64,000 nt of DNA from contig NW_027590123.1 of assembly GCF_964213995.1 (NCBI RefSeq), forward strand, positions 1,054,001 to 1,118,000, written 5' to 3'. The notes under the pieces were generated by a model. It was not told where the DNA came from, did not search any database, and saw only the letters and a program-made list of their open reading frames with translations. This document shows, piece by piece, positions 14,568 through 64,000 of this stretch. The DNA is from Mustelus asterias. Lineage: Eukaryota. The translations under genes were made by a program, and so were the position numbers. The first letter of the stretch is position 1. Each line of letters begins with the position of its first letter.

Positions 14568-14636
14568 TCCCTGGTAGTTCAGTGTTTGTGTTCAACATTC
14601 CCCCAGGGATAACTTGTTTCAATTCCCGCTGAGGAA
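14568..14636 (+). pseudogene. Highly degenerate tRNA-Glu-like relic (paralog ~28418-28487)
   Basis: TCCCTGGTAGTTCAGTG...GTTTCAATTCCCGCTGAGGAA keeps Glu-like ends and a B-box remnant. Confidence 0.45.
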
Positions 14637-43832: not shown

Positions 43833-43907
43833 TAGCCAAGATGTATACATGTTCAATAATACACTTTCAAAAATAGTGTATTATTGAACATGTATACATC
43901 TTGGCTA
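43833..43907. repeat. Perfect inverted repeat (33-bp arms, 9-nt spacer)
   Basis: TAGCCAAGATGTATACATGTTCAATAATACACT-TTCAAAAAT-AGTGTATTATTGAACATGTATACATCTTGGCTA. Confidence 0.95.
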
Positions 43908-44239
43908 ATGTTTAAATTTTCTAACTGTCGTTATATATCTTTCTATGCTGAGAGCACATCTGTAAAATATATATAAGGCAGTCTGGCATTCTTATCCTAA
44001 GGTAATCCATTCTGTTCTCAGAGTCTTTATGAGTATTTTAAATCCCAAAGTTTTTTGAGCTCCTTTAACGGGAGGGTTTGGTGTTGCCTCTTGTGAAACA
44101 GGTGGGCCATTCGCTAACACAGGTCAACACAGAGGCTAAATGATATTACAATTGTTTCTGGAACTGTGAACTTCCAGGATGGACAGGTTGGTTGAAGTGA
44201 TTCTGATTCAAAGGTGAAATTTGTTTCTGTTAAACCAAC

Positions 44240-44870
44240 TCAATCTCACAGAGACATTGACACTCACTCAAGCACAAGCATGTCCTCACAAGCGCACGCT
44301 GTCATATTCAAACACTCTCTCACATGCACATGCTGTCATACACACTCTCTCATACACATCTCATAAACCACGCACACATGCATCCACGCACACACCTACA
44401 CACACATCTATACACACACACACACACGCACACACGCCATTAACGAAACAGAAGCATAGACTCACACACAGGGATGCAGACAGTGAGAAACTGAAAACCT
44501 CACCGATAGAGGGACACACACACAGATACAGGGGCACACTCAGATGCAGGGTACACAGATATACGCGCAGATATAGGGGCACAGACACACATATGGGGCA
44601 CACACGCATAGATATAGGAGCACAGGCACTGATACAGACACACACACAGATACAGGGACACACACAGGTGCAGGGACACGAACAGATGCAGGGATACAGA
44701 CACTGATAAAGCGGCACACGCACGCTGACACAGAGGCACAGTCACAGATACATTACACACACAGATACGGGAACAGGCACACACGCAGGCACAAACGCAC
44801 ACACACAGCCACCCACACACACAGGCATACACATGCACACAGACATAGTGGTACACAGAGATACAGCACA
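44240..44870 (+). repeat. Degenerate CA-rich low-complexity repeat
   Basis: Imperfect (CA)n and CACAGATACAGGGG-type units. Confidence 0.85.
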
Positions 44871-45190
44871 GTGATATGACCACAGATGCTGCCAAACTTG
44901 CTGAGAATTTCCATCATCTACAGTTTTTAATATGGCTTTATAACAACGTAAAAGAAACAACAAGTCGGCAATGATCAGTATAATCAGGACAAATTTAAAC
45001 ATTGACCAGAATGGCATTTTTACATTGCAAAATTCTGAATTGGAACGTAAGGAGTTTAAGCGAAATGTGTGTAAGTTGCTTTGTGTTTCTATTTTGTGTT
45101 GTCTTGTATGTTTCACCGGAACCACGGGGATGAGGTTGGTGGATTTTTGAAATTGAAAGATATACGTGAGCATTTTTGTGGGACCATTGC

Positions 45191-46778
45191 CCTCTTTTTA
45201 GGTCAAACCAAATAAACAAACTCAGATTAAATCAGGACAAAGTAAAAGGGGCAGCTCCCCAAAGAGGAGGGGGAACAGCCCGAACAGAAATCAAAATACA
45301 AAGGAAACTTAAAAACATCAAATTAAAATGTGATTATTTGGGTCAATAATGCACCCCAACCCCTGCGGTGCCCAGCGGGCGCGGAAAGCATCAACCGCGC
45401 CCGTGGACACCGCATGCTCCCTCTCCAGGGACACCCGGGCGCGAACGTAGCCGCGGTAGAGGGGAAGACAGTCAGGATGGACGGCCCCCTCGATCGCCCG
45501 CTGCCTGGACCGGTAAATGGCGCGTTTCGCCAGGCCCAGGAGCAGGTTCACGAGGAGGTCGCCATCCCGACCCTCCCCTCTCCGCACCGGGTGTCCGTAG
45601 ATCAGGAGCGTGGGACTGAAGTGCAAACAAAACATCAATAAAAGGTTCTTCAGGAAAACATAAAGGGAGTGCAGCCTAAGACACTCAACATAGACATGGT
45701 CCACGGACTCCACAAGGCCGCAGAAAGGGCAGTCTTCGGAGCCCGTGAACCAGTGAATCCTACGGTTGTGCGGAACTGCTGCATGCAACACCCTCCACCC
45801 CAGGTCCCCGACGTAATTGGGGGAGATCCCTCCGTAGAGGGACCTCCAGCGGGGACCTCCGCCGCCCGGCGGCAACAAGGCCCGCCAAGGTGTATCCGGG
45901 CGACAGGCGAGGAGGCGGTAGTGGAAGGTGTGCAGCAGCAGCCCGCACAGGAAACGCCTCCGCGCGGTAGAAAAAGGCACGGAGGGCATTTCCGCGAGGC
46001 GGCTCAGGCTGTGGGGCACCTCACCCAGGGGAGGGGGCTGAGGCTTTGGGCCAATGTGGAATTCCGCCCGAACAGGGGAACGCTCGGGCGGGATCCCACC
46101 GCACGCCTGCGCCGTCTCAAGTTTGCGTGCAGTTTCGGGGCCGAGCACGACCGTCCTAAGGTCTAGGATGGCTTTGGCCGCGCGCCGGACGGACGTCCCC
46201 GCGCGCTCAGCCAGCACGCGGGGTCTCATCCAGCCTGCTCCTCCGCCATCGAGCACGTCCCCGATTCTGGTCACCCCGGCGTCCACAGCCCCCCTCTCCG
46301 CCAGCCACCTGAAGTTATACGGCTGGAGGAGCGGATTCCTGAGCAGCGGCTCTCGCACGAGAGCCGCTACTCCTGACGGGGGAGAGCTGCGTCGCGAGGC
46401 GACCTTGTTCCAGACAGTGAGGAGGTCCTGGTAAAAGACGGGCAACTCCTGCAGGGCGGTCGAAGCACGCCCCAGTTCGATATGCAGGAGCTGCACGTCA
46501 TAATTGAGGCCATGCCACTGGCGGAAGAAATACGTCCCATGGCACACCACTGTGGAGGGGGCTCAACGTAAAGGTACCTCTGCAGGGCCTGGAGGCGGAA
46601 GGTCGCTATCTGAGTGCGGAGGCACACCAGACCTTGTCCGCCCTCCTCAAGCGGGAGATACAGGACCGCAGCAGGGACCCAGTGCAGTCGATTGCCCCAG
46701 AAGAACCGCACGAGGGTTCTCTGGATATCGGTGACAAAGCCAGGGGGAGGGGTCAAAGGGACCAGCCGGCACCACAGC
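45191..46778 (-). mobile_element. Tx1-clade LINE, inverted 3' fragment (ORF2 C-terminus plus 3' UTR)
   Basis: ORFs 45318-46550 and 46367-46798 match the ORF2 C-terminus, with one frameshift near 46530. Element end GACCTAAAAAGAGG lies at 45204-45191. Confidence 0.95.
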
Positions 46779-49700
46779 TCCCAAGGCCCTCCCGCCATTT
46801 TCCTTAATCACGCGGCAGCTCGGGATGAAGTGCTACACCCACCCCGACATGTCTACCGAGGCCTGCGTCAAGGCAATGGCTGGGGTTGTCGGCCCCTCAG
46901 CCATTGTCGCGGCCTCAAAGATGTACGGCCGGGCCGTATTTTTCCTGAAGGCCGAGCGGGCGGTTCGCCTTGCCCTGGAAAAGGGGCTCACGGTGGGCGG
47001 GACGTTCCTGGCGGTGGACCCATTGGAGGCCACCGCCCATAAGATCGTATTATCGAACGTCCCGCCCATCCTACCGAGTGAGCTCCTCCTCCCCCACCTC
47101 CATCTACTGGGGGAGGTCAGGTCCGGGGTGCAGCCGATCCCGCTCGGCCTTCGGGACCCCTCCCTCCGCCATATATACTCCTTCCGGCGCCAGTTTTTTG
47201 TCCGCCTGGCCCGGGAGGAGGAACTGGAGGGAGGGTTCAATGTCCCCCACGAGGGGACCACTTACCGGGTCTTTTGGTCCGCGGACGGTGTGCGGTGCCA
47301 TGCCTGTAAGGAGGCGGGGCACGTGCGGAAAAACTGCCCCGTCTCCAAGGCCGCCGACCACCAACCCAAGGCGGCCGCAGCTGGCACCGCAGCCCCCTCT
47401 CCCCCCAAGCGAGTACCATCTGCCCCCCCGCGAGGGGAGGCCACGCCGGCAGCAGCTGCCACCTCAGCTGCCGGCGGGGGGGGAGCGGAGCCCCCGCGCG
47501 ACCAAAAGGCCCAGAAGGGACCCACGAAAAAGAAGGGGGGTACCGGAACCCCGGCCGCCAGGAAAGACACCCCGACCACCCCGGCAGCCGGCTCGGGGAC
47601 CGCCTCAGTCTCCACCTGCACCCCCCCCCCCACCACCACCATCTGCCGGGCCCGTGGGCTCTCCGGGGCCTAGTGCTGGGTCCGGCGCCCGGGATCATGG
47701 GCCCGAGCATGGGGGGGTAAGCGACCCCGAGCCGGCAAAACTGGCGACGCCGCCACCTCGGGGGGAAGTGACGGGAGAGCAGGGGGGGCGCGGCAAGGCG
47801 AAGAGGGGCGGAGGGCGAGGGGCCTCGCCTGCCCGAGGGCAGGTTAACAAAAAGAGGCGGGGCCCCTCGGGCACCGTAGAGTTCGAGGTCTGCGTGCCCC
47901 TCCCCCCTTGTGAGTCATCTCCTGCCGTGCCCCCACCTGTCTTTGTGCCTTGTCCCGCGAAAAAAGGGGGCAAGGCACCCTGCAAATCCAAGCATGTGCT
48001 GCCTCAGTCCCCCGGCGAGGAGTCTCCGGGGCTGGGTGGCAGCGGGGCCCCCACGGTTCCGTTCCACCCGGCCGGTTACAACCCGGAGTTCTTCTTCAGT
48101 CTGTCGGGGGACTGGGGCGACACTCCAATGTTCATGTCCTCGTGCGACGGCGGCGAAGAGACGATCCACTCGTCCTCTCCGTCCCGACCTTGGACGCTGG
48201 ACATCCCCAACCTCAGTCCGAAGGATACACCGGACCTGGGGGGTGTCCAAGCGTCTGGGGCGGGGGGGGGGGCTGGGCCGCCGTCGCACGGGGGCCCGCA
48301 ATCCGGGAAAGGTGAGCCCGGGGGGAACCCCTCCTCCACCGATCCTGGGGGTGGGATCGGGGAGGGGCGAGGGCTAGTTGGTGGCTCCGTGCCGCCCGCC
48401 GTACGTCCTGCGGCGGGGGACTCGGAGTCGAGGGGCGACCGCCCTGAGGAGGTCAGCGGCTCGGTGGGGGGCACGGGGACACTTTCAGAGTCTGCCCAGA
48501 GCGAGGCGGGGGACTCCCTCGTGCCCCCCACCGAGTCGTCCCTCATCCCCTCCAAGGACCTCAGGGTCTTTATCCGTAGCCATTCCGGTCGCTCCGACAT
48601 AATCCGGCTAGCCCTCGGCCGCTGGCCGGACCTGGCGCAGCTCGTCCGGTCCGTGAAGGCATGCTCGCATGCCTCCGCGGGCCTGGAGAAAATAGAGCGG
48701 CGCTGGGTACTGCGGTTCCTCCACAGGCTCGAAAAGGTGGGGGGTGGACTGGTGAGAATTGCGCCAGCGCCCCCCCCACACACCTAGTTAAGTGGTGACG
48801 GTGGCACAAAGCTGCTGACATGAAGGTGACCATAGCCAGCCTCAACATCAACGGCAGCAGTGGGCCACACCGCAGGTTCCAGAACTTCTCGGTCCTCCGT
48901 GACGGGAAGTATGCGGTGTGTTTCCTGCAGGAAACCCACACCGTTCCGGGAGACGAAGCCCAATGGCTCCTGGAGTGGCGAGGGGGGGTCTACATGAGCC
49001 ACCTCACGCTCGCTTCTTGCGGGGTGGCTATCTTGTTGGCCCCGCGTTATAAGCCGGAGATCTTGGGGGTCAAGGAGCCGGTGCCAGGCCGGTTGCTGCA
49101 CTTGACGGTCCGTGAGGGGGGCGTGGTCATTCACTTGCTGAATGTCTACGCCCCGACCGCTGGACCGCAGCAAACGACTTTCTACGAGAAAGTGTCCGCT
49201 CACATCGACACCATCGCGGGGGGCGAATGCATTATCCTCGGGGGAGATTTCAACTGCATCCTCGAGGCACGGGACCGCACCGGCCCCTGGCTGCGCACTC
49301 CGGCGGTGGTGAAGTTGCGGGACCTGATCGGGTCCCACGACTTGGTGGACGTCTGGAGACATCTCCATCCTGGCTCCAGCGCCTTCACTTTCGTGAGGCC
49401 TGGAGTCGGAGCGTCCAGGCTCGACCGCCTTTACATTTCGAAGGCGCACGTGTCCGGCGTGTCCTCGGTCTCCATGCGGCCGGTGTCGAGCACGGACCAC
49501 AGCCTGGTGTGGGCGGACTTTGCGCCGTCTCGCATCCGGCGGGGGTCCGCGTACTGGCACTTTAACAACACGCTGCTGGAGGACGAGCGCTTCCTGGACT
49601 CGTTCCGTCGATTCTGGGCCGGCTGGAGAAGGAAGCGGGGAGGCTTCCCCTCCTTGAGGCTCTGGTGGGATGTGGGCAAGACTCACGTCCGTACCTTCTG

Positions 49701-52700
49701 TCAGGGGTACGCGAGGGGGTCGACAAAGAGGCGGAAATCCAGGCTCGAGGAGTTGGAGAAGGAGGTGCTCGACCTGGAGGCACGTCTCAGTCGGCCTGAC
49801 GCGGACCCGGCCCTGCGTTCGGAGTACAGGGAGAAGAAGGACGCGCTGCGAGACCTGCAGCTTGCCAGGTCTCGCGGCGCGTACGTGAGGTCGCGGCTCC
49901 AGTTCCAGGTGGACCTGGACCGCGGCTCCCCCTTCTTCTACTCGCTGGAAAGAGGGCGGGCTAACCGTCAGCAGCTCCTTACGCTGCTGGCCGACGACGG
50001 TTCCCCCGTCTCGGATCCGGAGGGCATCCGGGCCATTGCCCGGGAGTATTACACCTCGCTCTTCTCTCCGGATCCGTCCAGCGAGGATGCCCGCAGACTT
50101 CTGTGGGAGGACCTGCCGCAGGTCGGCCCGGAGGGCGTCGGCAGGCTCGAGGCCCCTACCACCATGGCCGAGCTGACCGGCGCCCTAAATGGCCTCAGCC
50201 GGGGCAAGGCCCCTGGGCTGGACGGGCTGACAGTAGAGTTCTTCAGGGCGTTCTGGGACGTCCTGGGGAGCGACTACGCGGGGGTCCTGGGGGAGAGCGT
50301 CGCTACCGGGGAGATGCCCCTTTCGTGGCGCAGGGCCGTCATTGCCCTGCTGCCCAAGAAGGGGGATCTCCACCTGCTCAAGAACTGGTGCCCGGTCTCC
50401 CTCCTCAGCACGGATTATAAAATCTTTGCCAGGGCTATGGCTTCACGCCTTGGATCCGTGCTGGACCACTTGATCCACCCTGACCAGTCCTACACGGTCC
50501 CGGGCCGTTGCATACATGACAATCTCCACCTGGTCCGGGACCTAATCCATCACACCCAGAGGGCTGGTCTGTCGGGCGCCTTCTTGTCATTAGATCAGGA
50601 GAAGGCGTTCGACAGGGTGGAGCACGAGTATTTACTCGGGACTCTGCGGGCATTCGGGTTCGGGACGCATTTTGTCGCCCGGATCCGATTACTGTACTCT
50701 GCCGCAGAGTGTCTGATTAAGGTTAACGGGTCCCTGACGGCGCCCCTTCGCTTCGGGAGAGGAGTACGGCAGGGCTGCCCCTTGTCCGGCCAACTGTATT
50801 CCGTATGCGTGGAGCCATTCCTGCGCCTCTTGCGGAGGAGGTTGTCAGGTTTGGTCCTGCGCGGACCGGACGTAGGGGTGGTCCTGTCAGCTTACGCCGA
50901 CGATGTGCTCCTCATGTTCACGGACCCGGCTGACCTGCGGAGGATGCGAGAATGCCAGGCGGTGTACTCCGCCGCGTCCTCCGCCAGGATCAACTGGGCC
51001 AAGTGCTCCGGACTCCTTGTCGGTCCTTGGGAGACGGACCCCCTCCCGGAGGAGCTCAGGCCTTTCACCTGGAGCAGGACCGACCTCCTCTACTTGGGGG
51101 CCCATCTCTGCCCAGCCGAGGAATCCTGGCCGGCGAACTGGCGGGAGCTGGAGGCCAAAGTCTCCGCCCGCCTGAGTCGCTGGACAGGACTGCTCCGAGT
51201 GCTGTCCTACGGGGCGCGAGCTCGCGTCATAAACCAGCTGGTCGCCTCCATGCTGTGGTACCGGCTGGTCCCTTTGACCCCTCCCCCTGGCTTTGTCACC
51301 GATATCCAGAGAACCCTCGTGCGGTTCTTCTGGGGCAATCGACTGCACTGGGTCCCTGCTGCGGTCCTGTATCTCCCGCTTGAGGAGGGCGGACAAGGTC
51401 TGGTGTGCCTCCGCACTCAGATAGCGACCTTCCGCCTCCAGGCCCTGCAGAGGTACCTTTACGTTGAGCCCCCTCCACAGTGGTGTGCCATGGCGACGTA
51501 TTTCTTCCGCCAGTGGCACGGCCTCAATTATGACGTGCAGCTCCTGCATATCGAACTGGGGCGTGCTCCGACCGCCCTGCAGGAGTTGCCTGTCTTTTAC
51601 CAGGACCTCCTCACTGTCTGGAACAAGGTCGCCTCGCGACGCAGCTCTCCCCCGTCAGGAGTAGCGGCTCTCGTGCGAGAGCCGCTGCTCAGGAATCCGC
51701 TCCTCCAGCCGTATAACCTCAGGTGGCTGGCGGAGAGGGGGGCTGTGGACGCCGGGGTGACCAGAATCGGGGATGTGCTCGATGGCGGAGGAGCGGGCTG
51801 GATGAGTCCCCGCGTGCTGGCTGAGCGCGCGGGGACGTCCGTCCGGCGCGTGGCCAAAGCCATCCTAGACCTTAGGACGGTCGTGCTCGGCCCCGAAACT
51901 GCACGCAAACTTGAGACGGCGCAGGCGTGCGGTGGGATCCCGCCCGAGCGTTCCCCTGTTCGGGCGGAATTCCACATTGGCCCAAAGCCTCAGCCCCCTC
52001 CCCTGGGTGAGGTGCCCCACAGCCTGAGCCGCCTCGCGGAAATGCCCTCCGTGCCTTTTTCTACCGCGCGGAGGCGTTTCCTGTGCGGGCTGCTGCTGCA
52101 CACCTTCCACTACCGCCTCCTCGCCTGTCGCCCGGATACACCTTGGCGGGCCTTGTTGCCGCCGGGCGGCGGAGGTCCCCGCTGGAGGTCCCTCTACGGA
52201 GGGATCTCCCCCAATTACGTCGGGGACCTGGGGTGGAGGGTGATGCATGCAGCAGTTCCGCACAACCGTAGGATTCACTGGTTCACGGGCTCCGAAGACT
52301 GCCCTTTCTGTGGCCTTGTGGAGTCCGTGGACCATGTCTATGTTGAGTGTCTTAGGCTGCACTCCCTTTATGTTTTCCTGAAGAACCTTTTATTGATGTT
52401 TTGTTTACACTTCAGTCCCACGCTCCTGATCTACGGACACCCGGTGCGGAGAGGGGAGGGTCGGGATGGCGACCTCCTCGTGAACCTGCTCCTGGGCCTG
52501 GTGAAACGCGCCATTTACCGGTCCAGGCAGCGGGCGATCGAGGGGGCCGTCCATCCTGACTGTCTTCCCCTCTACCGCGGCTACGTTCGCGGCCAGGTGT
52601 CCCTGGAGAGGGAGCATGCGGTGTCCACGGGCGAGGTTGACGCTTTCCGCGCCCGCTGGGCACCGCAGGGGTTGGGGTGCATTATTGACCCTGATAATCA

Positions 52701-52839
52701 CCTTTTAATTTGATGTTTTTATGTTTCCTTTGCATTTTGATTTCTGTTCGGGCTGTTCCCCTCCTTTTTGGGGAGCTGCCCCTTTTACTTTGTCCTGATT
52801 TAATTTGAGTTTGTTTACTTGGTTTGACCTAAAAAGAGG
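46777..52839 (+). mobile_element. Tx1-clade LINE copy 1 (5'-truncated inside ORF1)
   Basis: Starts about 27 codons into ORF1; ORF1 is frameshifted in a C run at ~47620-47640; ORF2 is intact. Confidence 0.95.
48820..52713 (+). CDS. Tx1 ORF2: APE endonuclease, reverse transcriptase, C-terminal Cys/His domain (1297 aa)
   Basis: EN motifs SLNING, LQETH, GGDFN, SRLDR, TDH; RT motifs PVSLL, LDQEKAFDRV, GVRQGCPLSG, YADD; C-terminal CPFC-x7-H-x4-C. Confidence 0.97.
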   Translation: MKVTIASLNINGSSGPHRRFQNFSVLRDGKYAVCFLQETHTVPGDEAQWLLEWRGGVYMSHLTLASCGVAILLAPRYKPEILGVKEPVPGRLLHLTVREGGVVIHLLNVYAPTAGPQQTTFYEKVSAHIDTIAGGECIILGGDFNCILEARDRTGPWLRTPAVVKLRDLIGSHDLVDVWRHLHPGSSAFTFVRPGVGASRLDRLYISKAHVSGVSSVSMRPVSSTDHSLVWADFAPSRIRRGSAYWHFNNTLLEDERFLDSFRRFWAGWRRKRGGFPSLRLWWDVGKTHVRTFCQGYARGSTKRRKSRLEELEKEVLDLEARLSRPDADPALRSEYREKKDALRDLQLARSRGAYVRSRLQFQVDLDRGSPFFYSLERGRANRQQLLTLLADDGSPVSDPEGIRAIAREYYTSLFSPDPSSEDARRLLWEDLPQVGPEGVGRLEAPTTMAELTGALNGLSRGKAPGLDGLTVEFFRAFWDVLGSDYAGVLGESVATGEMPLSWRRAVIALLPKKGDLHLLKNWCPVSLLSTDYKIFARAMASRLGSVLDHLIHPDQSYTVPGRCIHDNLHLVRDLIHHTQRAGLSGAFLSLDQEKAFDRVEHEYLLGTLRAFGFGTHFVARIRLLYSAAECLIKVNGSLTAPLRFGRGVRQGCPLSGQLYSVCVEPFLRLLRRRLSGLVLRGPDVGVVLSAYADDVLLMFTDPADLRRMRECQAVYSAASSARINWAKCSGLLVGPWETDPLPEELRPFTWSRTDLLYLGAHLCPAEESWPANWRELEAKVSARLSRWTGLLRVLSYGARARVINQLVASMLWYRLVPLTPPPGFVTDIQRTLVRFFWGNRLHWVPAAVLYLPLEEGGQGLVCLRTQIATFRLQALQRYLYVEPPPQWCAMATYFFRQWHGLNYDVQLLHIELGRAPTALQELPVFYQDLLTVWNKVASRRSSPPSGVAALVREPLLRNPLLQPYNLRWLAERGAVDAGVTRIGDVLDGGGAGWMSPRVLAERAGTSVRRVAKAILDLRTVVLGPETARKLETAQACGGIPPERSPVRAEFHIGPKPQPPPLGEVPHSLSRLAEMPSVPFSTARRRFLCGLLLHTFHYRLLACRPDTPWRALLPPGGGGPRWRSLYGGISPNYVGDLGWRVMHAAVPHNRRIHWFTGSEDCPFCGLVESVDHVYVECLRLHSLYVFLKNLLLMFCLHFSPTLLIYGHPVRRGEGRDGDLLVNLLLGLVKRAIYRSRQRAIEGAVHPDCLPLYRGYVRGQVSLEREHAVSTGEVDAFRARWAPQGLGCIIDPDNHLLI

Positions 52840-53019
52840 TCTCTGAATGAGAATTGAGCTTCAGACGGCCTGAAACGTGCCTCCTCTGGGGCAGCGCCTG
52901 CACTTTGTTTCCGGGGTGGGTTTGTTTAAGAAGACGCCCGGTTCTGTTTGTTTTTTGTTTTGTTTGTTTGTTCTTGGCTCCCTGCGGGGAGGAAGGAGGG
53001 AGGTGAGCTGCTGCCTGCC

Positions 53020-53370
53020 TTGCCCGGCCTGCCTGTTGCCTGCCTGCCTGCCGTCTGGCCTGCTTACCTGCCTGCCTGCCGTCTGGCCTGCTTACCTGCC
53101 TGCCTGCCGTCTGGCCTGCTTACCTGCCTGCCTGCCGTCTGGCCTGCTTACCTGCCTGCCTGCCGTCTGGCCTGCTTACCTGCCTGCCTGCCGTCTGGCC
53201 TGCTTACCTGCCTGCCTGCCGTCTGGCCTGCTTACCTGCCTGCCTGCCGTCTGGACTGCCTGCCTGCCTGCCGTCTGGGCTGCCTGCCGTCTGGACTGCC
53301 TGCCTGCCTGCTTGCCGTTTGGCCTACCTGCCGTCTGGACTGCCTGACTGCCTGCTTGCCTGCCATCCGG
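53020..53370 (+). repeat. 28-bp minisatellite in the Tx1 5' UTR (also 60073-60423)
   Basis: Unit CCTGCTTACCTGCCTGCCTGCCGTCTGG, about 7 perfect copies plus degenerate CCTG-rich flanks. Confidence 0.95.
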
Positions 53371-53759
53371 CCTCTGGAGGGTGCGCTCTCCCCGGGGGGA
53401 GGGAGGAAGAGAGGACAGGGAGTGACTGGAGGAGAGGGGGGGGGGGGGGGCGAAGGCGTTTGGACTGTCTCTTTTCCATCTGCAGTGGGGGGGGTGAAGG
53501 CCTTTTCCTAATTCCCCTACCCACTGCTGCTGCCCCCGGGACCGGCACCCCCTCCCCTTTTCCCTCCTGACTGGGGCACCGGCCTTGTGCCTCATCTCCC
53601 TCCTGCTCCTCCAACCTCCTCTCTCCCTCTCTCGCTCCGGGGAGAGAGCACCTACACCCTTCCCCGCCTACCCCACCCTGCCTTATCTTCCCCATCCCAC
53701 ATACGCCCTGCCGTGCATCTGGGCAGTCTCGGGGTGGGTGTAGCACTTCCCCTGATACC

Positions 53760-55847
53760 ATGGCGACATCACCAGCGTCGCCGGTGGCAGGGCCTTCTCG
53801 GCCCACCTATGCGGGCGTGGCGGCTGCCAGAGCCCCCGCCGCTCCCAAGGCCCTGCCGCCATTCTCTTTAATCACGCGGCAGCTCGGGGTGAAGTGCTAC
53901 ACCCACCCCGACATGTCTATCGAGGCCTGCGTTAAGGCAATGGCTGGGGTTGTCGGCCCCTCAGCCATTGTCGCGGCCTCAAAGATGTACGGCCGGGCCG
54001 TATTCTTCCTGAAGGCCGAGCGGGCGGTTCGCCTCGCCCTGGAAAAGGGGCTCACGGTGGGCGGGACGTTCCTGGCGGTGGACCCTTTGGAGGCCACCGC
54101 CCACAAGATAGTAATATCGAACGTCCCGCCCTTCCTACCGAGTGAGCTCCTCCTCCCCCACCTCCATCTACTGGGGGAGGTCAGGTCCGGGGTGCAGCCG
54201 ATCCCGCTCGGCCTTCGGGACCCCTCCCTCCGCCACATATAATCCTTCCGGCGCCAGGTTTTTGTCCGCCTGGCCCGGGAGGAGGAACTGGAGGGAGGTT
54301 TCAATGTCCCCCACGAGGGGACCACGTACCGGGTCTTTTGGTCCGCGGACGGTGTGCGGTGCCATGCCTGTAAGGAGGCGGGGCACGTGAGGAAAAACTG
54401 CCCCGTCTCCAAGGCCGCCGACCACCAACCCAAGGCGGCCGCAGCTGGCACCGCAGCCCCCTCTCCCCCCAAGCGAGTACCATCTGCCCCCCCGCGAGGG
54501 GAGGCCACGCCGGCAGCAGCTGCCACCTCAGCTGCCGGCGGGGGGGGAGCGGAGCCCCCGCGCGGCCAAAAGGCCCAGAAGGGACCTACAAAAAAGAAGG
54601 GGGGTACCGGAACCCCGGCCCCCAGGGAAAACACCCCAACCACCCCGGCAGCCGGCTCGGGGACCGCCTCAGTCTCCACCTGCGCACCACCACCACCATC
54701 TGCCGGGCCCGTGGGCTCTCCGGGGCCTAGTGCTGGGTCCGGCGCCCGGGATCATGGGCCCGAGCATGGGGGGGTAAGCGACCCCGAGCCGGCAAAACTG
54801 GCGACGCCGCCACCTCGGGGAGAAGTGACGGGAGAGCAGGGGGGGCGCGGCAAGGCGAAGAGGGGCGGAGGGCGAGGGGCCTCGCCTGCCCAAGGGCAGG
54901 TTAACAAAAAGAGGCGGGGCCCCTCGGGCACCGTAGAGTTCGAGGTCTGCGTGCCCCTCCCCCCTTGTGAGTCATCTCCTGCCGTGCCCCCACCTGTCTT
55001 TGTGCCTTGTCCCGCGAAAAAAGGGGGCAAGGCACCCTGCAAATCCAAGCATGTGTTGCCTCAGTCCCCCGGCGAGGAGTCTCCGGGGCCGGGTGGCAGC
55101 GGGGCCCCCACGGTTCCGTTCCACCCGGCCGGTTACAACCCGGAGTTCTTCTTCAGTCTGTCGGGGGACTGGGGCGACACTCCAATGTTCATGTCCTCGT
55201 GCGGCGGCGGCGAAGAGACGATCCACTCGTCCTCTCCGTCCCGACCTTGGACGCTGGACATCCCCAACCTCAGTCCGAAGGATACACCGGACCTGGGGGG
55301 TGTCCAAGCGTCTGGGGCGGGGGGGGCGGCTGGGCTGCCGTCGCACGGGGGCCCGCAATCCGGGAAAGGTGAGCCCGGGGGGAACCCCTCCTCCACCGAT
55401 CCTGGGGGTGGGATCGGGGAGGGGCTAGGGCTAGTTGGTGGCTCCGTGCCGCCCGCCGTACGTCCTGCGGCGGGGGACTCGGAGTCGAGGGGCGACCGCC
55501 CTGAGGAGGTCAGCGGCTCGGTGGAGGGCACGGGGACACTTTCAGAGTCTGCCCAGAGCGAGGCGGGAGACTCCCTCGTGCCCCCCACCGAGTCGTCCCT
55601 CATCCCCTCCAAGGACCTCAGGGTCTTTATCCGTAGCCATTCCGGTCGCTCCGACATAATCCGGCTAGCCCTCGGCCGCTGGCCGGACCTGGCGCAGCTC
55701 GTCCGGTCCGTGAAGGCATGCTCGCATGCCTCCGCGGGCCTGGAGAAAATAGAGCGGCGCTGGGTACTGCGGTTCCTCCACAGGCTCGAAAAGGTGGGGG
55801 GTGGACTGGTGAGAATTGCGCCAGCGCCCCCCCACACACCTAGTTAA
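53760..55847 (+). pseudogene. Tx1 ORF1 (gag-like, CCHC knuckle; ~695 codons) with a premature stop
   Basis: CHACKEAGHVRKNC zinc knuckle; TAC>TAA at 54240-54242 where copies 1 and 3 have Tyr; same frame continues to 55847. Confidence 0.9.
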
Positions 55848-55875
55848 GTGGTGACGGTGGCACAAAGCTGCTGAC

Positions 55876-58800
55876 ATGAAGGTGACCATAGCCAGCCTCA
55901 ACATCAACGGCAGCAGTGGGCCACACCGCAGGTTCCAGAACTTCTCGGTCCTCCGTGACGGGAAGTATGCGGTGTGTTTCCTGCAGGAAACCCACACCGT
56001 TCCGGGAGACGAAGCCCAATGGCTCCTGGAGTGGCGAGGGGGGGTCTACATGAGCCACCTCACGCTCGCTTCTTGCGGGGTGGCTATCTTGTTGGCCCCG
56101 CGTTATAAGCCGGAGATCTTGGGGGTCAAGGAGCCGGTGCCAGGCCGGTTGCTGCACTTGACGGTCCGTGAGGGGGGCGTGGTCATTCACTTGCTGAATG
56201 TCTACGCCCCGACCGCCGGACCGCAGCAAACGACTTTCTACGAGAAAGTGTCCGCTCACATCGACACCATCGCGGGGGGCGAATGCATTATCCTCGGGGG
56301 AGATTTCAACTGCATCCTCGAGGCACGGGACCGCACCGGCCCCTGGCTGCGCACTCCGGCGGTGGTGAAGTTGCGGGACCTGATCGGGTCCCACGACTTG
56401 GTGGACGTCTGGAGACATCTCCATCCTGGCTCCAGCGCCTTCACTTTCGTGAGGCCTGGAGTCGGAGCGTCCAGGCTCGACCGCCTTTACATTTCGAAGG
56501 CGCACGTGTCCGGCGTGTCCTCGGTCTCCATGCGGTCGGTGTCGAGCACGGACCACAGCCTGGTGTGGGCGGACTTTGCGCCGTCTCGCATCCGGCGGGG
56601 GTCCGCGTACTGGCACTTTAACAACACGCTGCTGGAGGACGAGCGCTTCCTGGACTCGTTCCGTCGATTCTGGGCCGGCTGGAGAAGGAAGCGGGGAGGC
56701 TTCCCCTCCTTGAGGCTCTGGTGGGATGTGGGCAAGACTCACGTCCGTACCTTCTGTCAGGGGTACGCGAGGGGGTCGACAAAGAGGCGGAAATCCAGGC
56801 TCGAGGAGTTGGAGAAGGAGGTGCTCGACCTGGAGGCACGTCTCAGTCGGCCTGACGCGGACCCGGCCCTGCGTTCGGAGTACAGGGAGAAGAAGGACGC
56901 GCTGCGGGACCTGCAGCTTGCCAGGTCTCGCGGCGCGTACGTGAGGTCGCGGCTCCAGTTCCAGGTGGACCTGGACCGCGGCTCCCCCTTCTACTCGCTG
57001 GAAAGAGGGCGGGCTAACCGTCAGCAGCTCCTTACGCTGCTGGCCGACGACGGTTCCCCCGTCTCGGATCCGGAGGGCATCCGGGCCATTGCCCGGGAGT
57101 ATTACACCTCGCTCTTCTCTCCGGATCCGTCCAGCGAGGATGCCCGCAGACTTCTGTGGGAGGACCTGCCGCAGGTCGGCCCGGAGGGCGTCGGCAGGCT
57201 CGAGGCCCCTACCACCATGGCCGAGCTGACCGGCGCCCTAAATGGCCTCAGCCGGGGCAAGGCCCCTGGGCTGGACGGGCTGACAGTAGAGTTCTTCAGG
57301 GCGTTCTGGGACGTCCTGGGGAGCGACTACGCGGGGGTCCTGGGGGAGAGCGTCGCTACCGGGGAGATGCCCCTTTCGTGGCGCAGGGCCGTCATTGCCC
57401 TGCTGCCCAAGAAGGGGGATCTCCACCTGCTCAAGAACTGGTGCCCGGTCTCCCTCCTCAGCACGGATTATAAAATCTTTGCCAGGGCTATGGCTTCACG
57501 CCTTGGATCCGTGCTGGACCACTTGATCCACCCTGACCAGTCCTACACGGTCCCGGGCCGTTGCATACATGACAATCTCCACCTGGTCCGGGACCTAATC
57601 CATCACACCCAGAGGGCTGGTCTGTCGGGCGCCTTCTTGTCATTAGATCAGGAGAAGGCGTTCGACAGGGTGGAGCACGAGTATTTACTCGGGACTCTGC
57701 GGGCATTCGGGTTCGGGACGCATTTTGTCGCCCGGATCCGATTACTGTACTCTGCCGCAGAGTGTCTGATTAAGGTTAACGGGTCCCTGACGGCACCCCT
57801 TCGCTTCGGGAGAGGAGTACGGCAGGGCTGCCCCTTGTCCGGCCAACTGTATTCCGTATGCGTGGAGCCATTCCTGCGCCTCTTGCGGAGGAGGTTGTCA
57901 GGTTTGGTCCTGCGCGGACCGGACGTAGGGGTGGTCCTGTCAGCTTACGCCGACGATGTGCTCCTCATGTTCACGGACCCGGCTGACCTGCGGAGGATGC
58001 GAGAATGCCAGGCGGTGTACTCCGCCGCGTCCTCCGCCAGGATCAACTGGGCCAAGTGCTCCGGACTCCTTGTCGGTCCTTGGGAGACGGACCCCCTCCC
58101 GGAGGAGCTCAGGCCTTTCACCTGGAGCAGGACCGACCTCCTCTACTTGGGGGCCCATCTCTGCCCAGCCGAGGAATCCTGGCCGGCGAACTGGCGGGAG
58201 CTGGAGGCCAAAGTCTCCGCCCGCCTGAGTCGCTGGACAGGACTGCTCCGAGTGCTGTCCTACGGGGCGCGAGCTCGCGTCATAAACCAGCTGGTCGCCT
58301 CCATGCTGTGGTACCGGCTGGTCCCTTTGACCCCTCCCCCTGGCTTTGTCACCGATATCCAGAGAACCCTCGTGCGGTTCTTCTGGGGCAATCGACTGCA
58401 CTGGGTCCCTGCTGCGGTCCTGTATCTCCCGCTTGAGGAGGGCGGACAAGGTCTGGTGTGCCTCCGCACTCAGATAGCGACCTTCCGCCTCCAGGCCCTG
58501 CAGAGGTACCTTTACGTTGAGCCCCCTCCACAGTGGTGTGCCATGGCGACGTATTTCTTCCGCCAGTGGCACGGCCTCAATTATGACGTGCAGCTCCTGC
58601 ATATCGAACTGGGGCGTGCTCCGACCGCCCTGCAGGAGTTGCCTGTCTTTTACCAGGACCTCCTCACTGTCTGGAACAAGGTCGCCTCGCGACGCAGCTC
58701 TCCCCCGTCAGGAGTAGCGGCTCTCGTGCGAGAGCCGCTGCTCAGGAATCCGCTCCTCCAGCCGTATAACCTCAGGTGGCTGGCGGAGAGGGGGGCTGTG

Positions 58801-59766
58801 GACGCCGGGGTGACCAGAATCGGGGATGTGCTCGATGGCGGAGGAGCGGGCTGGATGAGTCCCCGCGTGCTGGCTGAGCGCGCGGGGACGTCCGTCCGGC
58901 GCGTGGCCAAAGCCATCCTAGACCTTAGGACGGTCGTGCTCGGCCCCGAAACTGCACGCAAACTTGAGACGGCGCAGGCGTGCGGTGGGATCCCGCCCGA
59001 GCGTTCCCCTGTTCGGGCGGAATTCCACATTGGCCCAAAGCCTCAGCCCCCTCCCCTGGGTGAGGTGCCCCACAGCCTGAGCCGCCTCGCGGAAATGCCC
59101 TCCGTGCCTTTTTCTACCGCGCGGAGGCGTTTCCTGTGCGGGCTGCTGCTGCACACCTTCCACTACCGCCTCCTCGCCTGTCGCCCGGATACACCTTGGC
59201 GGGCCTTGTTGCCGCCGGGCGGCGGAGGTCCCCGCTGGAGGTCCCTCTACGGAGGGATCTCCCCCAATTACGTCGGGGACCTGGGGTGGAGGGTGATGCA
59301 TGCAGCAGTTCCGCACAACCGTAGGATTCACTGGTTCACGGGCTCCGAAGACTGCCCTTTCTGTGGCCTTGTGGAGTCCGTGGACCATGTCTATGTTGAG
59401 TGTCTTAGGCTGCACTCCCTTTATGTTTTCCTGAAGAACCTTTTATTGATGTTTTGTTTACACTTCAGTCCCACGCTCCTGATCTACGGACACCCGGTGC
59501 GGAGAGGGGAGGGTCGGGATGGCGACCTCCTCGTGAACCTGCTCCTGGGCCTGGTGAAACGCGCCATTTACCGGTCCAGGCAGCGGGCGATCGAGGGGGC
59601 CGTCCATCCTGACTGTCTTCCCCTCTACCGCGGCTACGTTCGCGGCCAGGTGTCCCTGGAGAGGGAGCATGCGGTGTCCACGGGCGAGGTTGACGCTTTC
59701 CGCGCCCGCTGGGCACCGCAGGGGTTGGGGTGCATTATTGACCCTGATAATCACCTTTTAATTTGA
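55876..59766 (+). CDS. Tx1 ORF2 (1296 aa), intact
   Basis: Nearly identical to 48820-52713 apart from a 1-codon deletion (SPFFY>SPFY) and P>S in the EN domain. Confidence 0.97.
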   Translation: MKVTIASLNINGSSGPHRRFQNFSVLRDGKYAVCFLQETHTVPGDEAQWLLEWRGGVYMSHLTLASCGVAILLAPRYKPEILGVKEPVPGRLLHLTVREGGVVIHLLNVYAPTAGPQQTTFYEKVSAHIDTIAGGECIILGGDFNCILEARDRTGPWLRTPAVVKLRDLIGSHDLVDVWRHLHPGSSAFTFVRPGVGASRLDRLYISKAHVSGVSSVSMRSVSSTDHSLVWADFAPSRIRRGSAYWHFNNTLLEDERFLDSFRRFWAGWRRKRGGFPSLRLWWDVGKTHVRTFCQGYARGSTKRRKSRLEELEKEVLDLEARLSRPDADPALRSEYREKKDALRDLQLARSRGAYVRSRLQFQVDLDRGSPFYSLERGRANRQQLLTLLADDGSPVSDPEGIRAIAREYYTSLFSPDPSSEDARRLLWEDLPQVGPEGVGRLEAPTTMAELTGALNGLSRGKAPGLDGLTVEFFRAFWDVLGSDYAGVLGESVATGEMPLSWRRAVIALLPKKGDLHLLKNWCPVSLLSTDYKIFARAMASRLGSVLDHLIHPDQSYTVPGRCIHDNLHLVRDLIHHTQRAGLSGAFLSLDQEKAFDRVEHEYLLGTLRAFGFGTHFVARIRLLYSAAECLIKVNGSLTAPLRFGRGVRQGCPLSGQLYSVCVEPFLRLLRRRLSGLVLRGPDVGVVLSAYADDVLLMFTDPADLRRMRECQAVYSAASSARINWAKCSGLLVGPWETDPLPEELRPFTWSRTDLLYLGAHLCPAEESWPANWRELEAKVSARLSRWTGLLRVLSYGARARVINQLVASMLWYRLVPLTPPPGFVTDIQRTLVRFFWGNRLHWVPAAVLYLPLEEGGQGLVCLRTQIATFRLQALQRYLYVEPPPQWCAMATYFFRQWHGLNYDVQLLHIELGRAPTALQELPVFYQDLLTVWNKVASRRSSPPSGVAALVREPLLRNPLLQPYNLRWLAERGAVDAGVTRIGDVLDGGGAGWMSPRVLAERAGTSVRRVAKAILDLRTVVLGPETARKLETAQACGGIPPERSPVRAEFHIGPKPQPPPLGEVPHSLSRLAEMPSVPFSTARRRFLCGLLLHTFHYRLLACRPDTPWRALLPPGGGGPRWRSLYGGISPNYVGDLGWRVMHAAVPHNRRIHWFTGSEDCPFCGLVESVDHVYVECLRLHSLYVFLKNLLLMFCLHFSPTLLIYGHPVRRGEGRDGDLLVNLLLGLVKRAIYRSRQRAIEGAVHPDCLPLYRGYVRGQVSLEREHAVSTGEVDAFRARWAPQGLGCIIDPDNHLLI

Positions 59767-60812
59767 TGTTTTTATGTTTCCTTTGCATTTTGATTTCTGT
59801 TCGGGCTGTTCCCCTCCTTTTTGGGGAGCTGCCCCTTTTACTTTGTCCTGATTTAATTTGAGTTTGTTTACTTGGTTTGACCTAAAAAGAGGTCTCTGAA
59901 TGAGAATTGAGCTTCAGACGGCCTGAAACGTGCCTCCTCTGGGGCAGCGCCTGCACTTTGTTTCCGGGGTGGGTTTGTTTAAGAAGACGCCCGGTTCTGT
60001 TTGTTTTTTGTTTTGTTTGTTTGTTCTTGGCTCCCTGCGGGGAGGAAGGAGGGAGGTGAGCTGCTGCCTGCCTTGCCCGGCCTGCCTGTTGCCTGCCTGC
60101 CTGCCGTCTGGCCTGCTTACCTGCCTGCCTGCCGTCTGGCCTGCTTACCTGCCTGCCTGCCGTCTGGCCTGCTTACCTGCCTGCCTGCCGTCTGGCCTGC
60201 TTACCTGCCTGCCTGCCGTCTGGCCTGCTTACCTGCCTGCCTGCCGTCTGGCCTGCTTACCTGCCTGCCTGCCGTCTGGCCTGCTTACCTGCCTGCCTGC
60301 CGTCTGGACTGCCTGCCTGCCTGCCGTCTGGGCTGCCTGCCGTCTGGACTGCCTGCCTGCCTGCTTGCCGTTTGGCCTACCTGCCGTCTGGACTGCCTGA
60401 CTGCCTGCTTGCCTGCCATCCGGCCTCTGGAGGGTGCGCTCTCCCCGGGGGGAGGGAGGAAGAGAGGACAGGGAGTGACTGGAGGAGAGGGGGGGGGGGG
60501 GGGCGAAGGCGTTTGGACTGTCTCTTTTCCATCTGCAGTGGGGGGGGTGAAGGCCTTTTCCTAATTCCCCTACCCACTGCTGCTGCCCCCGGGACCGGCA
60601 CCCCCTCCCCTTTTCCCTCCTGACTGGGGCACCGGCCTTGTGCCTCATCTCCCTCCTGCTCCTCCAACCTCCTCTCTCCCTCTCTCGCTCCGGGGAGAGA
60701 GCACCTACACCCTTCCCCGCCTACCCCACCCTGCCTTATCTTCCCCATCCCACATACGCCCTGCCGTGCATCTGGGCAGTCTCGGGGTGGGTGTAGCACT
60801 TCCCCTGATACC

Positions 60813-62910
60813 ATGGCGACATCACCAGCGTCGCCGGTGGCAGGGCCTTCTCGGCCCACCTATGCGGGCGTGGCGGCTGCCAGAGCCCCCGCCGCTCCCA
60901 AGGCCCTGCCGCCATTCTCTTTAATCACGCGGCAGCTCGGGGTGAAGTGCTACGCCCACCCCGACATGTCTATCGAGGCCTGCGTTAAGGCAATGGCTGG
61001 GGTTGTCGGCCCCTCAGCCATTGTCGCGGCCTCAAAGATGTACGGCCGGGCCGTATTCTTCCTGAAGGCCGAGCGGGCGGTTCGCCTCGCCCTGGAAAAG
61101 GGGCTCACGGTGGGCGGGACGTTCCTGGCGGTGGACCCTTTGGAGGCCACCGCCCACAAGATAGTAATATCGAACGTCCCGCCCTTCCTACCAAGTGAGC
61201 TCCTCCTCCCCCACCTCCATCTACTGGGGGAGGTCAGGTCCGGGGTGCAGCCGATCCCGCTCGGCCTTCGGGACCCCTCCCTCCGCCACATATACTCCTT
61301 CCGGCGCCAGGTTTTTGTCCGCCTGGCCCGGGAGGAGGAACTGGAGGGAGGGTTCAATGTCCCCCACGAGGGGACCACGTACCGGGTCTTTTGGTCCGCG
61401 GACGGTGTGCGGTGCCATGCCTGTAAGGAGGCGGGGCACGTGAGAAAAAACTGCCCCGTCTCCAAGGCCGCCGACCACCAACCCAAGGCGGCCGCAGCTG
61501 GCACCGCAGCCCCCTCTCCCCCCAAGCGAGTACCATCTGCCCCCCCGCGAGGGGAGGCCACGCCGGCAGCAGCTGCCACCTCAGCTGCCGGCGGGGGGGG
61601 AGCGGAGCCCCCGCGCGGCCAAAAGGCCCAGAAGGGACCTACAAAAAAGAAGGGGGGTACCGGAACCCCGGCCCCCAGGGAAAACACCCCAACCACCCCG
61701 GCAGCCGGCTCGGGGACCGCCTCAGTCTCCACCTGCGCCCCCCCCCCACCACCACCACCATCTGCCGGGCCCGTGGGCTCTCCGGGGCCTAGTGCTGGGT
61801 CCGGCGCCCGGGATCATGGGCCCGAGCATGGGGGGGTAAGCGACCCCGAGCCGGCAAAACTGGCGACGCCGCCACCTCGGGGGGAAGTGACGGGAGAGCA
61901 GGGGGGGCGCGGCAAGGCGAAGAGGGGCGGAGGGCGAGGGGCCTCGCCTGCCCGAGGGCAGGTTAACAAAAAGAGGCGGGGCCCCTCGGGCACCGTAGAG
62001 TTCGAGGTCTGCGTGCCCCTCCCCCCCTTGTGAGTCATCTCCTGCCGTGCCCCCACCTGTCTTTGTGCCTTGTCCCGCGAAAAAAGGGGGCAAGGCACCC
62101 TGCAAATCCAAGCATGTGTTGCCTCAGTCCCCCGGCGAGGAGTCTCCGGGGCCGGGTGGCAGCGGGGCCCCCACGGTTCCGTTCCACCCGGCCGGTTACA
62201 ACCCGGAGTTCTTCTTCAGTCTGTCGGGGGACTGGGGCGACACTCCAATGTTCATGTCCTCGTGCGGCGGCGGCGAAGAGACGATCCACTCGTCCTCTCC
62301 GTCCCGACCTTGGACGCTGGACATCCCCAACCTCAGTCCGAAGGATACACCGGACCTGGGGGGTGTCCAAGCGTCTGGGGCGGGGGGGGGGGCTGGGCCG
62401 CCGTCGCACAGGGGCCCGCAATCCGGGAAAGGTGAGCCCGGGGGGAACCCCTCCTCCACCGATCCTGGGGGTGGGATCGGGGAGGGGCTAGGGCTAGTTG
62501 GTGGCTCCGTGCCGCCCGCCGTACGTCCTGCGGCGGGGGACTCGGAGTCGAGGGGCGACCGCCCTGAGGAGGTCAGCGGCTCGGTGGAGGGCACGGGGAC
62601 ACTTTCAGAGTCTGCCCAGAGCGAGGCGGGGGACTCCCTCGTGCCCCCCACCGAGTCGTCCCTCATCCCCTCCAAGGACCTCAGGGTCTTTATCCGTAAC
62701 CATTCCGGTCGCTCCGACATAATCCGGCTAGCCCTCGGCCACTGGCCGGACCTGGCGCGGCTCGTCCGGTCCGTGAAGGCATGCTCGCATGCCTCCGCGG
62801 GCCTGGAGAAAATAGAGCGGCGCTGGGTACTGCGGTTCCTCCACAGGCTCGAAAAGGTGGGGGGTGGACTGGTGAGAATTGCGCCAGCGCCCCCCCACAC
62901 ACCTAGTTAA
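60813..62910 (+). pseudogene. Tx1 ORF1 with a +1 frameshift in a C run (~62021-62027; possibly a sequencing error)
   Basis: ORFs 60813-62033 and 62047-62910 join if one C is removed (7 C here versus 6 in the other copies). Confidence 0.85.
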
Positions 62911-62938
62911 GTGGTGACGGTGGCACAAAGCTGCTGAC

Positions 62939-64000
62939 ATGAAGGTGACCATAGCCAGCCTCAACATCAACGGCAGCAGTGGGCCACACCGCAGGTTCCA
63001 GAACTTCTCGGTCCTCCGTGACGGGAAGTATGCGGTGTGTTTCCTGCAGGAAACCCACACCGTTCCGGGAGACGAAGCCCAATGGCTCCTGGAGTGGCGA
63101 GGGGGGGTCTACATGAGCCACCTCACGCTCGCTTCTTGCGGGGTGGCTATCTTGTTGGCCCCGCGTTATAAGCCGGAGATCTTGGGGGTCAAGGAGCCGG
63201 TGCCAGGCCGGTTGCTGCACTTGACGGTCCGTGAGGGGGGCGTGGTCATTCACTTGCTGAATGTCTACGCCCCGACCGCTGGACCGCAGCAAACGACTTT
63301 CTACGAGAAAGTGTCCGCTCACATCGACACCATCGCGGGGGGCGAATGCATTATCCTCGGGGGAGATTTCAACTGCATCCTCGAGGCACGGGACCGCACC
63401 GGCCCCTGGCTGCGCACTCTGGCGGTGGTGAAGTTGCGGGACCTGATCGGGTCCCACGACTTGGTGGACGTCTGGAGACATCTCCATCCTGGCTCCAGCG
63501 CCTTCACTTTCGTGAGGCCTGGAGTCGGAGCGTCCAGGCTCGACCGCCTTTACATTTCGAAGGCGCACGTGTCCGGCGTGTCCTCGGTCTCCATGCGGCC
63601 GGTGTCGAGCACGGACCACAGCCTGGTGTGGGCGGACTTTGCGCCGTCTCGCATCCGGCGGGGGTCCGCGTACTGGCACTTTAACAACACGCTGCTGGAG
63701 GACGAGCGCTTCCTGGACTCGTTCCGTCGATTCTGGGCCGGCTGGAGAAGGAAGCGGGGAGGCTTCCCCTCCTTGAGGCTCTGGTGGGATGTGGGCAAGA
63801 CTCACGTCCGTACCTTCTGTCAGGGGTACGCGAGGGGGTCGACAAAGAGGCGGAAATCCAGGCTCGAGGAGTTGGAGAAGGAGGTGCTCGACCTGGAGGC
63901 ACGTCTCAGTCGGCCTGACGCGGACCCGGCCCTGCGTTCGGAGTACAGGGAGAAGAAGGACGCGCTGCGAGACCTGCAGCTTGCCAGGTCTCGCGGCGCG
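62939..64000 (+). CDS. Tx1 ORF2 N-terminal part (endonuclease), truncated by window end
   Basis: ATGAAGGTGACC at 62939, collinear with the other copies. Confidence 0.93.
   Translation, partial: MKVTIASLNINGSSGPHRRFQNFSVLRDGKYAVCFLQETHTVPGDEAQWLLEWRGGVYMSHLTLASCGVAILLAPRYKPEILGVKEPVPGRLLHLTVREGGVVIHLLNVYAPTAGPQQTTFYEKVSAHIDTIAGGECIILGGDFNCILEARDRTGPWLRTLAVVKLRDLIGSHDLVDVWRHLHPGSSAFTFVRPGVGASRLDRLYISKAHVSGVSSVSMRPVSSTDHSLVWADFAPSRIRRGSAYWHFNNTLLEDERFLDSFRRFWAGWRRKRGGFPSLRLWWDVGKTHVRTFCQGYARGSTKRRKSRLEELEKEVLDLEARLSRPDADPALRSEYREKKDALRDLQLARSRGA

Follow-up and report, generated by a model that had tools for sequence, protein, structure and literature searches.

We analysed a 64,000-nt stretch of the Mustelus asterias genome (RefSeq assembly GCF_964213995.1, contig NW_027590123.1, positions 1,054,001 to 1,118,000 of the forward strand; hereafter the window), whose right end holds a head-to-tail array of a 7053-bp long interspersed nuclear element (LINE). 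We consider it likely that the array consists of three stacked copies of a young Tx1L-like LINE occupying a preferred site led by TCTC, likely in a zinc-finger first exon; two insertions and a single local unequal crossover probably gave rise to it. That elements stack in tandem where a target has been regenerated is already known; the choice of target is the interesting part, and the array is its by-product.

Comparing the window with itself, we found direct repeats beginning at 46777, 52840 and 59893, with a unit-to-unit identity of 99.2% across 10.2 kb and a period of 7053 bp (the junction string at 52821/52840 recurs at 59874/59893). The initial annotation had claimed at least three direct copies of this unit and proposed extending the contig rightwards; the assembly holds exactly three, the first of them truncated at its 5' end, and the third, which is whole and closes the array, extends 2,959 bp past the window's right end, to G000:C91:1120959. 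It is followed by a local target, an exon end and then about 190 bp of intron, and this flank matches an empty zinc-finger locus at 86% over 248 bp. The array and its immediate surroundings are laid out as follows:

45191-46778, - strand: 3' piece of this family in inverted orientation, covering unit 5465-7053, 1589 bp, 98.3% identical to the unit, an older 3' variant with an off-target GCAA flank
46777-52839, + strand: copy 1, 5'-truncated at unit position 1001, inside open reading frame 1 (ORF1)
50743-53900, + strand: junction block 1, 3158 bp, identical to 57796-60953
52714-52839, + strand: 3' untranslated region (UTR) of copy 1, T-rich, with a hairpin, ending in AAAAAGAGG
52840-52866, + strand: 27-bp host-target copy at junction 1, with the element-borne GAGAAT allele, matching the flank after copy 3 and empty sites
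52867-59892, + strand: copy 2, full length
57796-60953, + strand: junction block 2, identical to block 1
59893-59919, + strand: 27-bp host-target copy at junction 2
59920-64000, + strand: the part of copy 3 within the window, running on to window-equivalent 66959

Host DNA lies in both junctions, where none recognisable had been claimed: each unit opens with a 27-bp copy of the host target (hereafter the 5' tag), and the DNA after copy 3 repeats 25 bp of the unit start before a donor-like exon end. AAGAGG, which had been suggested as a possible target, was rejected, as it belongs to the element's own end; AAAAAGAGG is the 3' end of the element, with 1377 exact 3' ends genome-wide and 0 in the reversed control. 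The target is instead led by TCTC and lies in the predicted first exon of C2H2 zinc-finger genes that occur in clusters. We identified 142 exact occurrences of the target with its native continuation, and inspection of the first 30 yielded 28 empty sites. Reading 9.5 kb at each of 20 empty sites, we found a C2H2 frame on the same strand 0.8-5.1 kb downstream in 19/20 and on the opposite strand in 0/20. Upstream of the 31 non-tandem 5' junctions, at least two CCAAT boxes are present within 380 bp in 30 cases and a GGAAG motif, which we take to be ETS-like, in 29; empty targets too lie behind CCAAT/GGAAG motifs, and in many cases between two divergently oriented genes. Exact matches to the exon-end motif number 791 and are clustered. 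Because of the donor-like end, the downstream C2H2 frames, the upstream promoter motifs and the clustering of the exon-end motif, we predict the target to be a short first exon, likely non-coding, of the C2H2 genes that make up a large zinc-finger family. Comparison of one empty zinc-finger locus with sequencing runs returned no RNA-labelled match among those listed, which is uninformative either way; contigs from four presumed-RNA runs of other organisms covered 24-28 of the 30 bins of the empty locus, and the 15 of 529 contig joints that were listed all fell among the zinc-finger repeats, with none at the exon-1 donor, again uninformative either way. At a minority of sites, tRNA and 5S rRNA matches adjoin predicted exon 1 just downstream of the target (L123:1566-1638; L119:1556-1664), so that other short RNAs may use the same exon.

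To describe insertion specificity across the genome, we counted element 3' ends by their flanks. A total of 130 abut the target site (15 among the 100 listed derive from one minisatellite), and a further 72 adjoin a second site in that exon, about 45 bp downstream; all 12 of these that were inspected were of the older type. Young-type 3' ends number 217 genome-wide, the search patterns behind the counts of 130, 217 and 1377 not being strict subsets of one another. From the window, C91:420-480 kb and 78 further stretches we drew 61 full-length copies, defined by the presence of both ends 6.0-8.3 kb apart and excluding truncated or rearranged copies; locus L141 was left out of the joint set (59/60 used) and read separately. 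Of the 61 copies, 54 end on target, with 31 reaching a native target and 23 the tag of the copy that follows; the other 7 end elsewhere. For the young subfamily, both this share and that of 130 on-site versus 217 young-type ends lie above the >20% of flanks of one sequence type that PMC4494074 uses as its criterion for a target-specific Tx1 family; counted over all 1377 ends, older ones included, the share is about 15%. Intact heads are almost restricted to the site, with 113 found by a query without the tag and 108 by a query with it, and head positions with and without the tag coincide for 92/100 among the matches listed, counted by eye. The 5' junctions inspected are preceded by exon-type sequence or another copy's 3' end in 30/30 cases.

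Off-cluster copies are mostly short and 5'-truncated. Their flanks are not random, randomness being what the initial annotation had set against its target-specific explanation: among the first 30 young-type ends, 22 flanks begin TC and 7 RCAA, several with 14-15-nt duplications, and most of the first 30 flanks of all types begin RCAA. Collecting the junctions of the family, as had been proposed, we derived the TCTC-led target and a true duplication of 14-15 nt. The two older copies with the endonuclease domain are decayed and 81-87% identical, and either a change of endonuclease or RNA priming may lie behind the shift of target. Also recorded were off-target head-to-tail pairs of short copies, split by their own 14-15-nt duplication, at L282/L283 (C11) and L287/L288 (C14), and, at L069 (G000:C1:112239584-112242604), two tandem fusions of U2 small nuclear RNA (snRNA) sequence with 5'-truncated element 3' ends, which resemble snRNA-LINE chimeras.

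We rejected the 27-bp spacer as a true target-site duplication on the basis of the mismatch between 5' and 3' alleles. Because such a duplication would give matching copies, and the 5' and local 3' target 23-mers are identical in only 1/14 solo insertions, the spacer is carried by the element. Its GAGAAT allele is present in 30/61 5' tags, in 0/31 local 3' targets and in 1/100 native target matches among the matches listed. The element-borne target copy at the 5' end measures 25-34 nt. The true duplication is 14-15 nt off target and, at the target, 14 nt in the truncated copy L119; as the L119 insertion sits behind an earlier copy, a regenerated target has been reused there.

Two further observations bear on the RNA, the first being a feature of the 5' UTR:

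52913-52930, + strand: 5' UTR join, likely a spliced-out intron, where another copy holds a 115-nt GT..AG segment (same at 59966-59983)

The exact join is present in 7/61 copies, and the GT..AG form with the same flanks in 1/61. The second is a retrocopy on G000:C3 (L141:8360-8740, - strand), in which 200 bp of 3' end are followed by the tag, by 121 bp belonging to the next head and by a poly(A), all between 11-nt duplications; since it spans a 3' end, a tag and the next head, some RNA crossed a copy junction. Together, the lost GT..AG segment and the C3 retrocopy point to RNA polymerase II (Pol II) read-through RNA; these two and the donor-derived tag bear indirectly on whether element RNA starts in the host transcription unit, and the element probably borrows the promoter of the zinc-finger gene. 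In its own right, the retrocopy is evidence of read-through RNA and of an enzyme that uses poly(A). At the element's 3' end there is no A tail, as the initial annotation had said, nor is there an AATAAA or ATTAAA hexamer within the last 250 nt.

The assignment to the Tx1 clade held. ORF2 is 49% identical to Tx1L of Xenopus laevis (YTX2_XENLA) along its full length (1297 aa, 1330 bits), its best named full-length relative, and human L1 ORF2p scores only 269 bits, over residues 3-858; as judged from these alignments, ORF2 is nearer to Tx1L than to L1. Pfam searches detected PF03372 (AP endonuclease) at residues 6-227 and PF00078 (reverse transcriptase) at 512-760 of ORF2, both above the Pfam cut-offs. 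A stingray protein model shows 70% identity across one third of ORF2. The nearest proteins, at 50-55%, are from turtles. Separately, the turtle protein model P0019 fuses a related reverse transcriptase (55% identity) with KRAB and C2H2 domains, which may hint that relatives there also sit in zinc-finger genes, or may be a gene-prediction merger. The reading frames and the 5' UTR repeat lie at:

48820-52713, + strand: ORF2 of copy 1, 1297 aa, open, AP endonuclease and reverse transcriptase
53011-53360, + strand: 28-bp tandem repeat in the 5' UTR, 12.5 units, repeated in copy 3 at 60064-60413
53760-54242, + strand: ORF1 of copy 2, early stop, 160 aa
55876-59766, + strand: ORF2 of copy 2, 1296 aa, open
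60813-62033, + strand: ORF1 of copy 3, frameshifted, 406 aa
from 62939, + strand: ORF2 of copy 3, 1297 aa, open

The ORF2 proteins of copies 1 and 2, described earlier as differing at about two positions, differ by P221S and the loss of F372, and those of copies 3 and 1 at 11 positions. ORF1 is broken in all three copies (truncated, stopped or frameshifted), and its 406-aa fragment in the window has no Pfam match. Intact ORF1 of 695-707 aa is open in 23/61 family copies, with a visible CX2CX4HX4C zinc knuckle. That the elements are young, as had been claimed, agrees with both ORFs being open in 16/61 full-length copies and with a median pairwise distance of 0.62% among the 61.

Re-insertion at a target and unequal crossover had been offered as alternative origins of the array; both apply, re-insertion throughout the family and one local duplication or conversion as the best explanation of the identical junctions here. 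Across the family, adjacent pairs are mutual nearest relatives in 1/13 cases, the others ranking 2-59 of 61, and distances within adjacent pairs resemble the family median. We identified 25 spacer variants among 48 junction contexts. Because 12/13 neighbours are not mutual nearest relatives and spacers are this varied, we interpret the arrays as stacks of separate insertions. The sole mutual-nearest pair lies in the array of the window. Its junctions had been described as seamless and identical: a block of 3158 bp is indeed identical at both, but they are not seamless, since the host target lies between the units. Copies 1 and 2 have zero differing columns in unit 4957-7053 (the last 2.1 kb), the next closest tail having 15 differences; copies 2 and 3 have zero differing columns in unit 1-1061, and their heads are identical over 1023 nt, the next closest having 22 differences. 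Eleven rare alleles are common to copies 1 and 2, 5 of them absent from all other aligned copies. Copy 2 combines the head of copy 3 with the body of copy 1 and is therefore the expected product of an unequal crossover in a dimer, by which the 3.16-kb junction block was probably duplicated.

The alternative that survives best differs from this account only in the route by which the array reached three units: three independent insertions at the target, followed by a 3.2-kb gene conversion that equalised both junctions. It would suit the middles of copies 2 and 3, which are as distant as those of unrelated members (14 differences in unit 1050-3000), and the unrelated units of which other arrays consist. 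We nevertheless judge it unlikely, as rare alleles at 1062 and 4603, positions beyond the limits of the identical block, are common to copies 1 and 2, and one allele carried by all three copies occurs in just 1/59 others.

Several observations weigh against an origin by targeted insertion and one crossover. Copies 1 and 2 differ at 38 sites in unit 1050-7053, of which 34 lie before 3000, and because of this divergence a further conversion (or the left-end rearrangement discussed below) must be added. Private mutations gave no clear difference in age by array position, and the stacking order is not established. Ectopic recombination is common in the clusters, with 17/30 junction loci sharing one upstream block, and could inflate the 5'/3' mismatches. 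As the clusters hold segmental duplicates (or haplotigs), counts are not independent events. The wider family is mostly off target, the exon holding about 15% of 3' ends (130 + 72 of 1377). The array site itself is an orphan, with no zinc-finger exon in the following 97 kb and no promoter before it, and the labels 'first exon' and 'host promoter' are read from sequence features.

Recombination between stacks is visible at other loci. At L004-L030 (the 17/30 junction loci) and L221-L239, a fixed 1111-bp 3' piece and a shared, mosaic 2-12-kb upstream block precede different full-length copies, which points to ectopic exchange between stacks. We rejected the 1111-bp piece as a long terminal repeat or RNA-borne zinc-finger retrocopy, the block being 2-12 kb long, mosaic and not starting at the target. 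At G000:C91:432397-462918 (L046-L049), four unrelated full-length copies occupy one exon with open zinc-finger frames on both sides, and three short 3' pieces are stacked in the exon of the divergent gene.

At the left end of the array, copy 1 is fused head-to-head with the inverted 3' piece with an overlap of 2 nt. The flank of that piece also follows a full-length copy on G000:C147, over at least 10 kb at 98.9%, and this copy has its 5' end in a zinc-finger exon. The likeliest reading is that the left end arose by rearrangement between inverted copies, with loss of the promoter. Window 36023-46778 has in the C147 region (L189, L240; G000:C147:250762-268499) a paralogue or haplotig about 99% identical to it, which the full-length copy connects to a zinc-finger-type promoter. 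As a pre-deletion allele of the array locus the C147 region is unsupported, since its divergent exon fails to match the right flank. A twin-primed 5' inversion would turn round the stretch of RNA immediately 5' of the break and leave a duplication on either side of the whole insert. We rejected this origin, as what is inverted here is a 3' end from a different variant, bearing a flank of its own, and the array has no flanking duplication.

The third unit could be an assembly artefact, produced by a repeated pass through the identical block or by merged haplotypes, the true locus being a dimer. The junction blocks do show 0 differences where the copies otherwise differ, and the C147 paralogue or haplotig of the left flank is structured differently; against this, the middle of copy 2 has alleles of its own, found in neither neighbour, and many other loci hold arrays of 2-4 units that are heterogeneous. 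We consider such an artefact very improbable, and it would leave the targeting result untouched. Less probable still is a macrosatellite in the making, in which a single insertion was amplified by unequal crossover alone and target specificity is irrelevant. The identical 3.16-kb junction blocks would be expected from such a process, and on C89 a unit of target and 3' end, 132 bp long, has been amplified about 20 times. The array, however, has only three units, the tail of copy 3 differs from those of copies 1 and 2 at 15 sites, and family-wide the process is largely refuted by the 12/13 adjacent pairs that are not mutual nearest (1/13 is) and by the 25 spacer variants. The C89 locus (L307, G000:C89:2431200-2434400) is a minisatellite inside a predicted first exon, each repeat unit comprising 27 bp of target and the last 105 bp of the element. 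A single event that inserted the whole array, either from an RNA multimer produced by read-through or through template jumping from end to end, with twin priming as the source of the inverted piece, would account for a truncated first unit followed by whole ones and could draw on the junction-crossing read-through RNA documented by the C3 retrocopy, but it has next to no probability, given that the inverted piece represents an older 3' variant and has a flank in common with a full-length copy elsewhere, that no duplication flanks the array and that about 21 kb would be needed in one event.

For stacking at the zinc-finger exon followed by local crossover, we propose the following mechanism. 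The element RNA would be produced from the host gene's promoter, thus starting with host exon sequence, and without a stop signal it would continue past the element's own 3' end. The endonuclease would nick at TCTC, and reverse transcription would begin at the fixed AAAAAGAGG end, which may be why there is no poly(A). The copied exon piece would then anneal to the target and finish the 5' junction, as proposed for R2; if so, each full-length insertion therefore leaves a target before and behind itself. Later copies would stack at the regenerated targets in the same orientation, and recombination between copies would reshuffle the stacks; in this array it probably duplicated a junction and deleted both the promoter and copy 1's 5' end.

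Dewa and Mutsu are target-specific Tx1 families with tRNA-array and 5S targets. The RNA gene or spacer that characterises targets of Keno, Mutsu and Dewa is not what is found here, as donor-like sequence and a C2H2 frame follow the target. Further target-specific Tx1 families are Keno (U2), Kibi (TC)n, Koshi (TTC)n and Tx1-Mar (Mariner-N4); they use multicopy targets with weak to strong specificity, and tandem insertion is noted for the partner SINEU elements (PMC4494074). The shark family resembles Kibi in a cut within a short TC run, as Kibi's target would suggest, although the run comprises 1-6 TC units inside a unique exon and few off-target TC flanks are microsatellites, in contrast to Kibi and Koshi. 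Its target differs from those of Keno, Kibi, Koshi and Tx1-Mar in being a unique stretch of predicted exon, 25-34 nt long, with a Pol II-type promoter upstream; it is neither an RNA gene nor a microsatellite nor a transposon. Tx1L, which inserts into the Tx1D DNA transposon, shares with it two ORFs, an AP endonuclease with a reverse transcriptase, and sequence-preferring insertion into a multicopy target (PMC4494074); the target of the shark family is the predicted first exon of protein-coding zinc-finger genes and not Tx1D.

R2 is co-transcribed with its target and bears up to 36 nt of upstream 28S sequence on the 5' end of its RNA, a tag postulated to anneal, prime the second strand and give uniform 5' junctions (PMC3774820). 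Target sequence at the 5' end is common to both, co-transcription with the target being proposed for the family here, and a co-transcription argument is also made in PMC4494074; R2 differs in its restriction-like endonuclease, rDNA target and ribozyme, and the tag here is retained as an extra target copy. For Drosophila R1, a 'double insertion' at one target, with 33 nt of target kept in the junction, was followed by unequal exchange (PMC5932611). The array of the window is alike in preservation of the target in the junction and, probably, in two insertions at one target and expansion by unequal exchange; it differs in clade and target, in its family's arrays of 2-4 units and in a spacer that is mostly donor-derived and not a local target copy. 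Tx1 targets reported in PMC4494074 and PMC4640811 are U2/U5 snRNA, 5S rRNA, microsatellites, satellites and transposons, and our literature search, made mostly without subscription papers and without Repbase entries, turned up no LINE described as targeting the first exons of zinc-finger genes.

Elsewhere in the window, we noted a 274-aa ORF resembling a G-protein-coupled receptor by eye (39778-40602, + strand), inverted fragments of another LINE, CR1-like by eye (438-2990 and 20792-21442), an old local duplication at 80-90% identity (8695-18107 versus 23319-33857) and an N run at 25129-25269.

Read jointly, these results might describe a vertebrate LINE lineage that uses the promoters of a roughly 800-member zinc-finger family as its niche, a reading that we put forward tentatively, as possible rather than probable. 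Such a lineage would be expressed by these promoters, would carry and regenerate its own landing pad, and would have its target partly set by host RNA reading through its 3' end; its off-target flank preference would have changed from RCAA to TCTC in step with a move of the home site by about 45 bp in the same exon, and its stacks would act as recombination hubs that remodel zinc-finger clusters. The targets of sequence-specific LINEs listed in the literature available to us are RNA genes, microsatellites, telomeric repeats and other transposons. Homing to the 5' exon of a large protein-coding family, as predicted here, would extend this 'redundant multicopy target' strategy to Pol II genes. 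As the system is young (16/61 copies with both ORFs open), the roles of the endonuclease, the 5' tag and 3' read-through in target choice are separable in it, and the same clusters show both the steps from double insertion to tandem repeat, with the trimer of the window and the C89 minisatellite of 132-bp units, and rearrangement of zinc-finger loci mediated by the elements.

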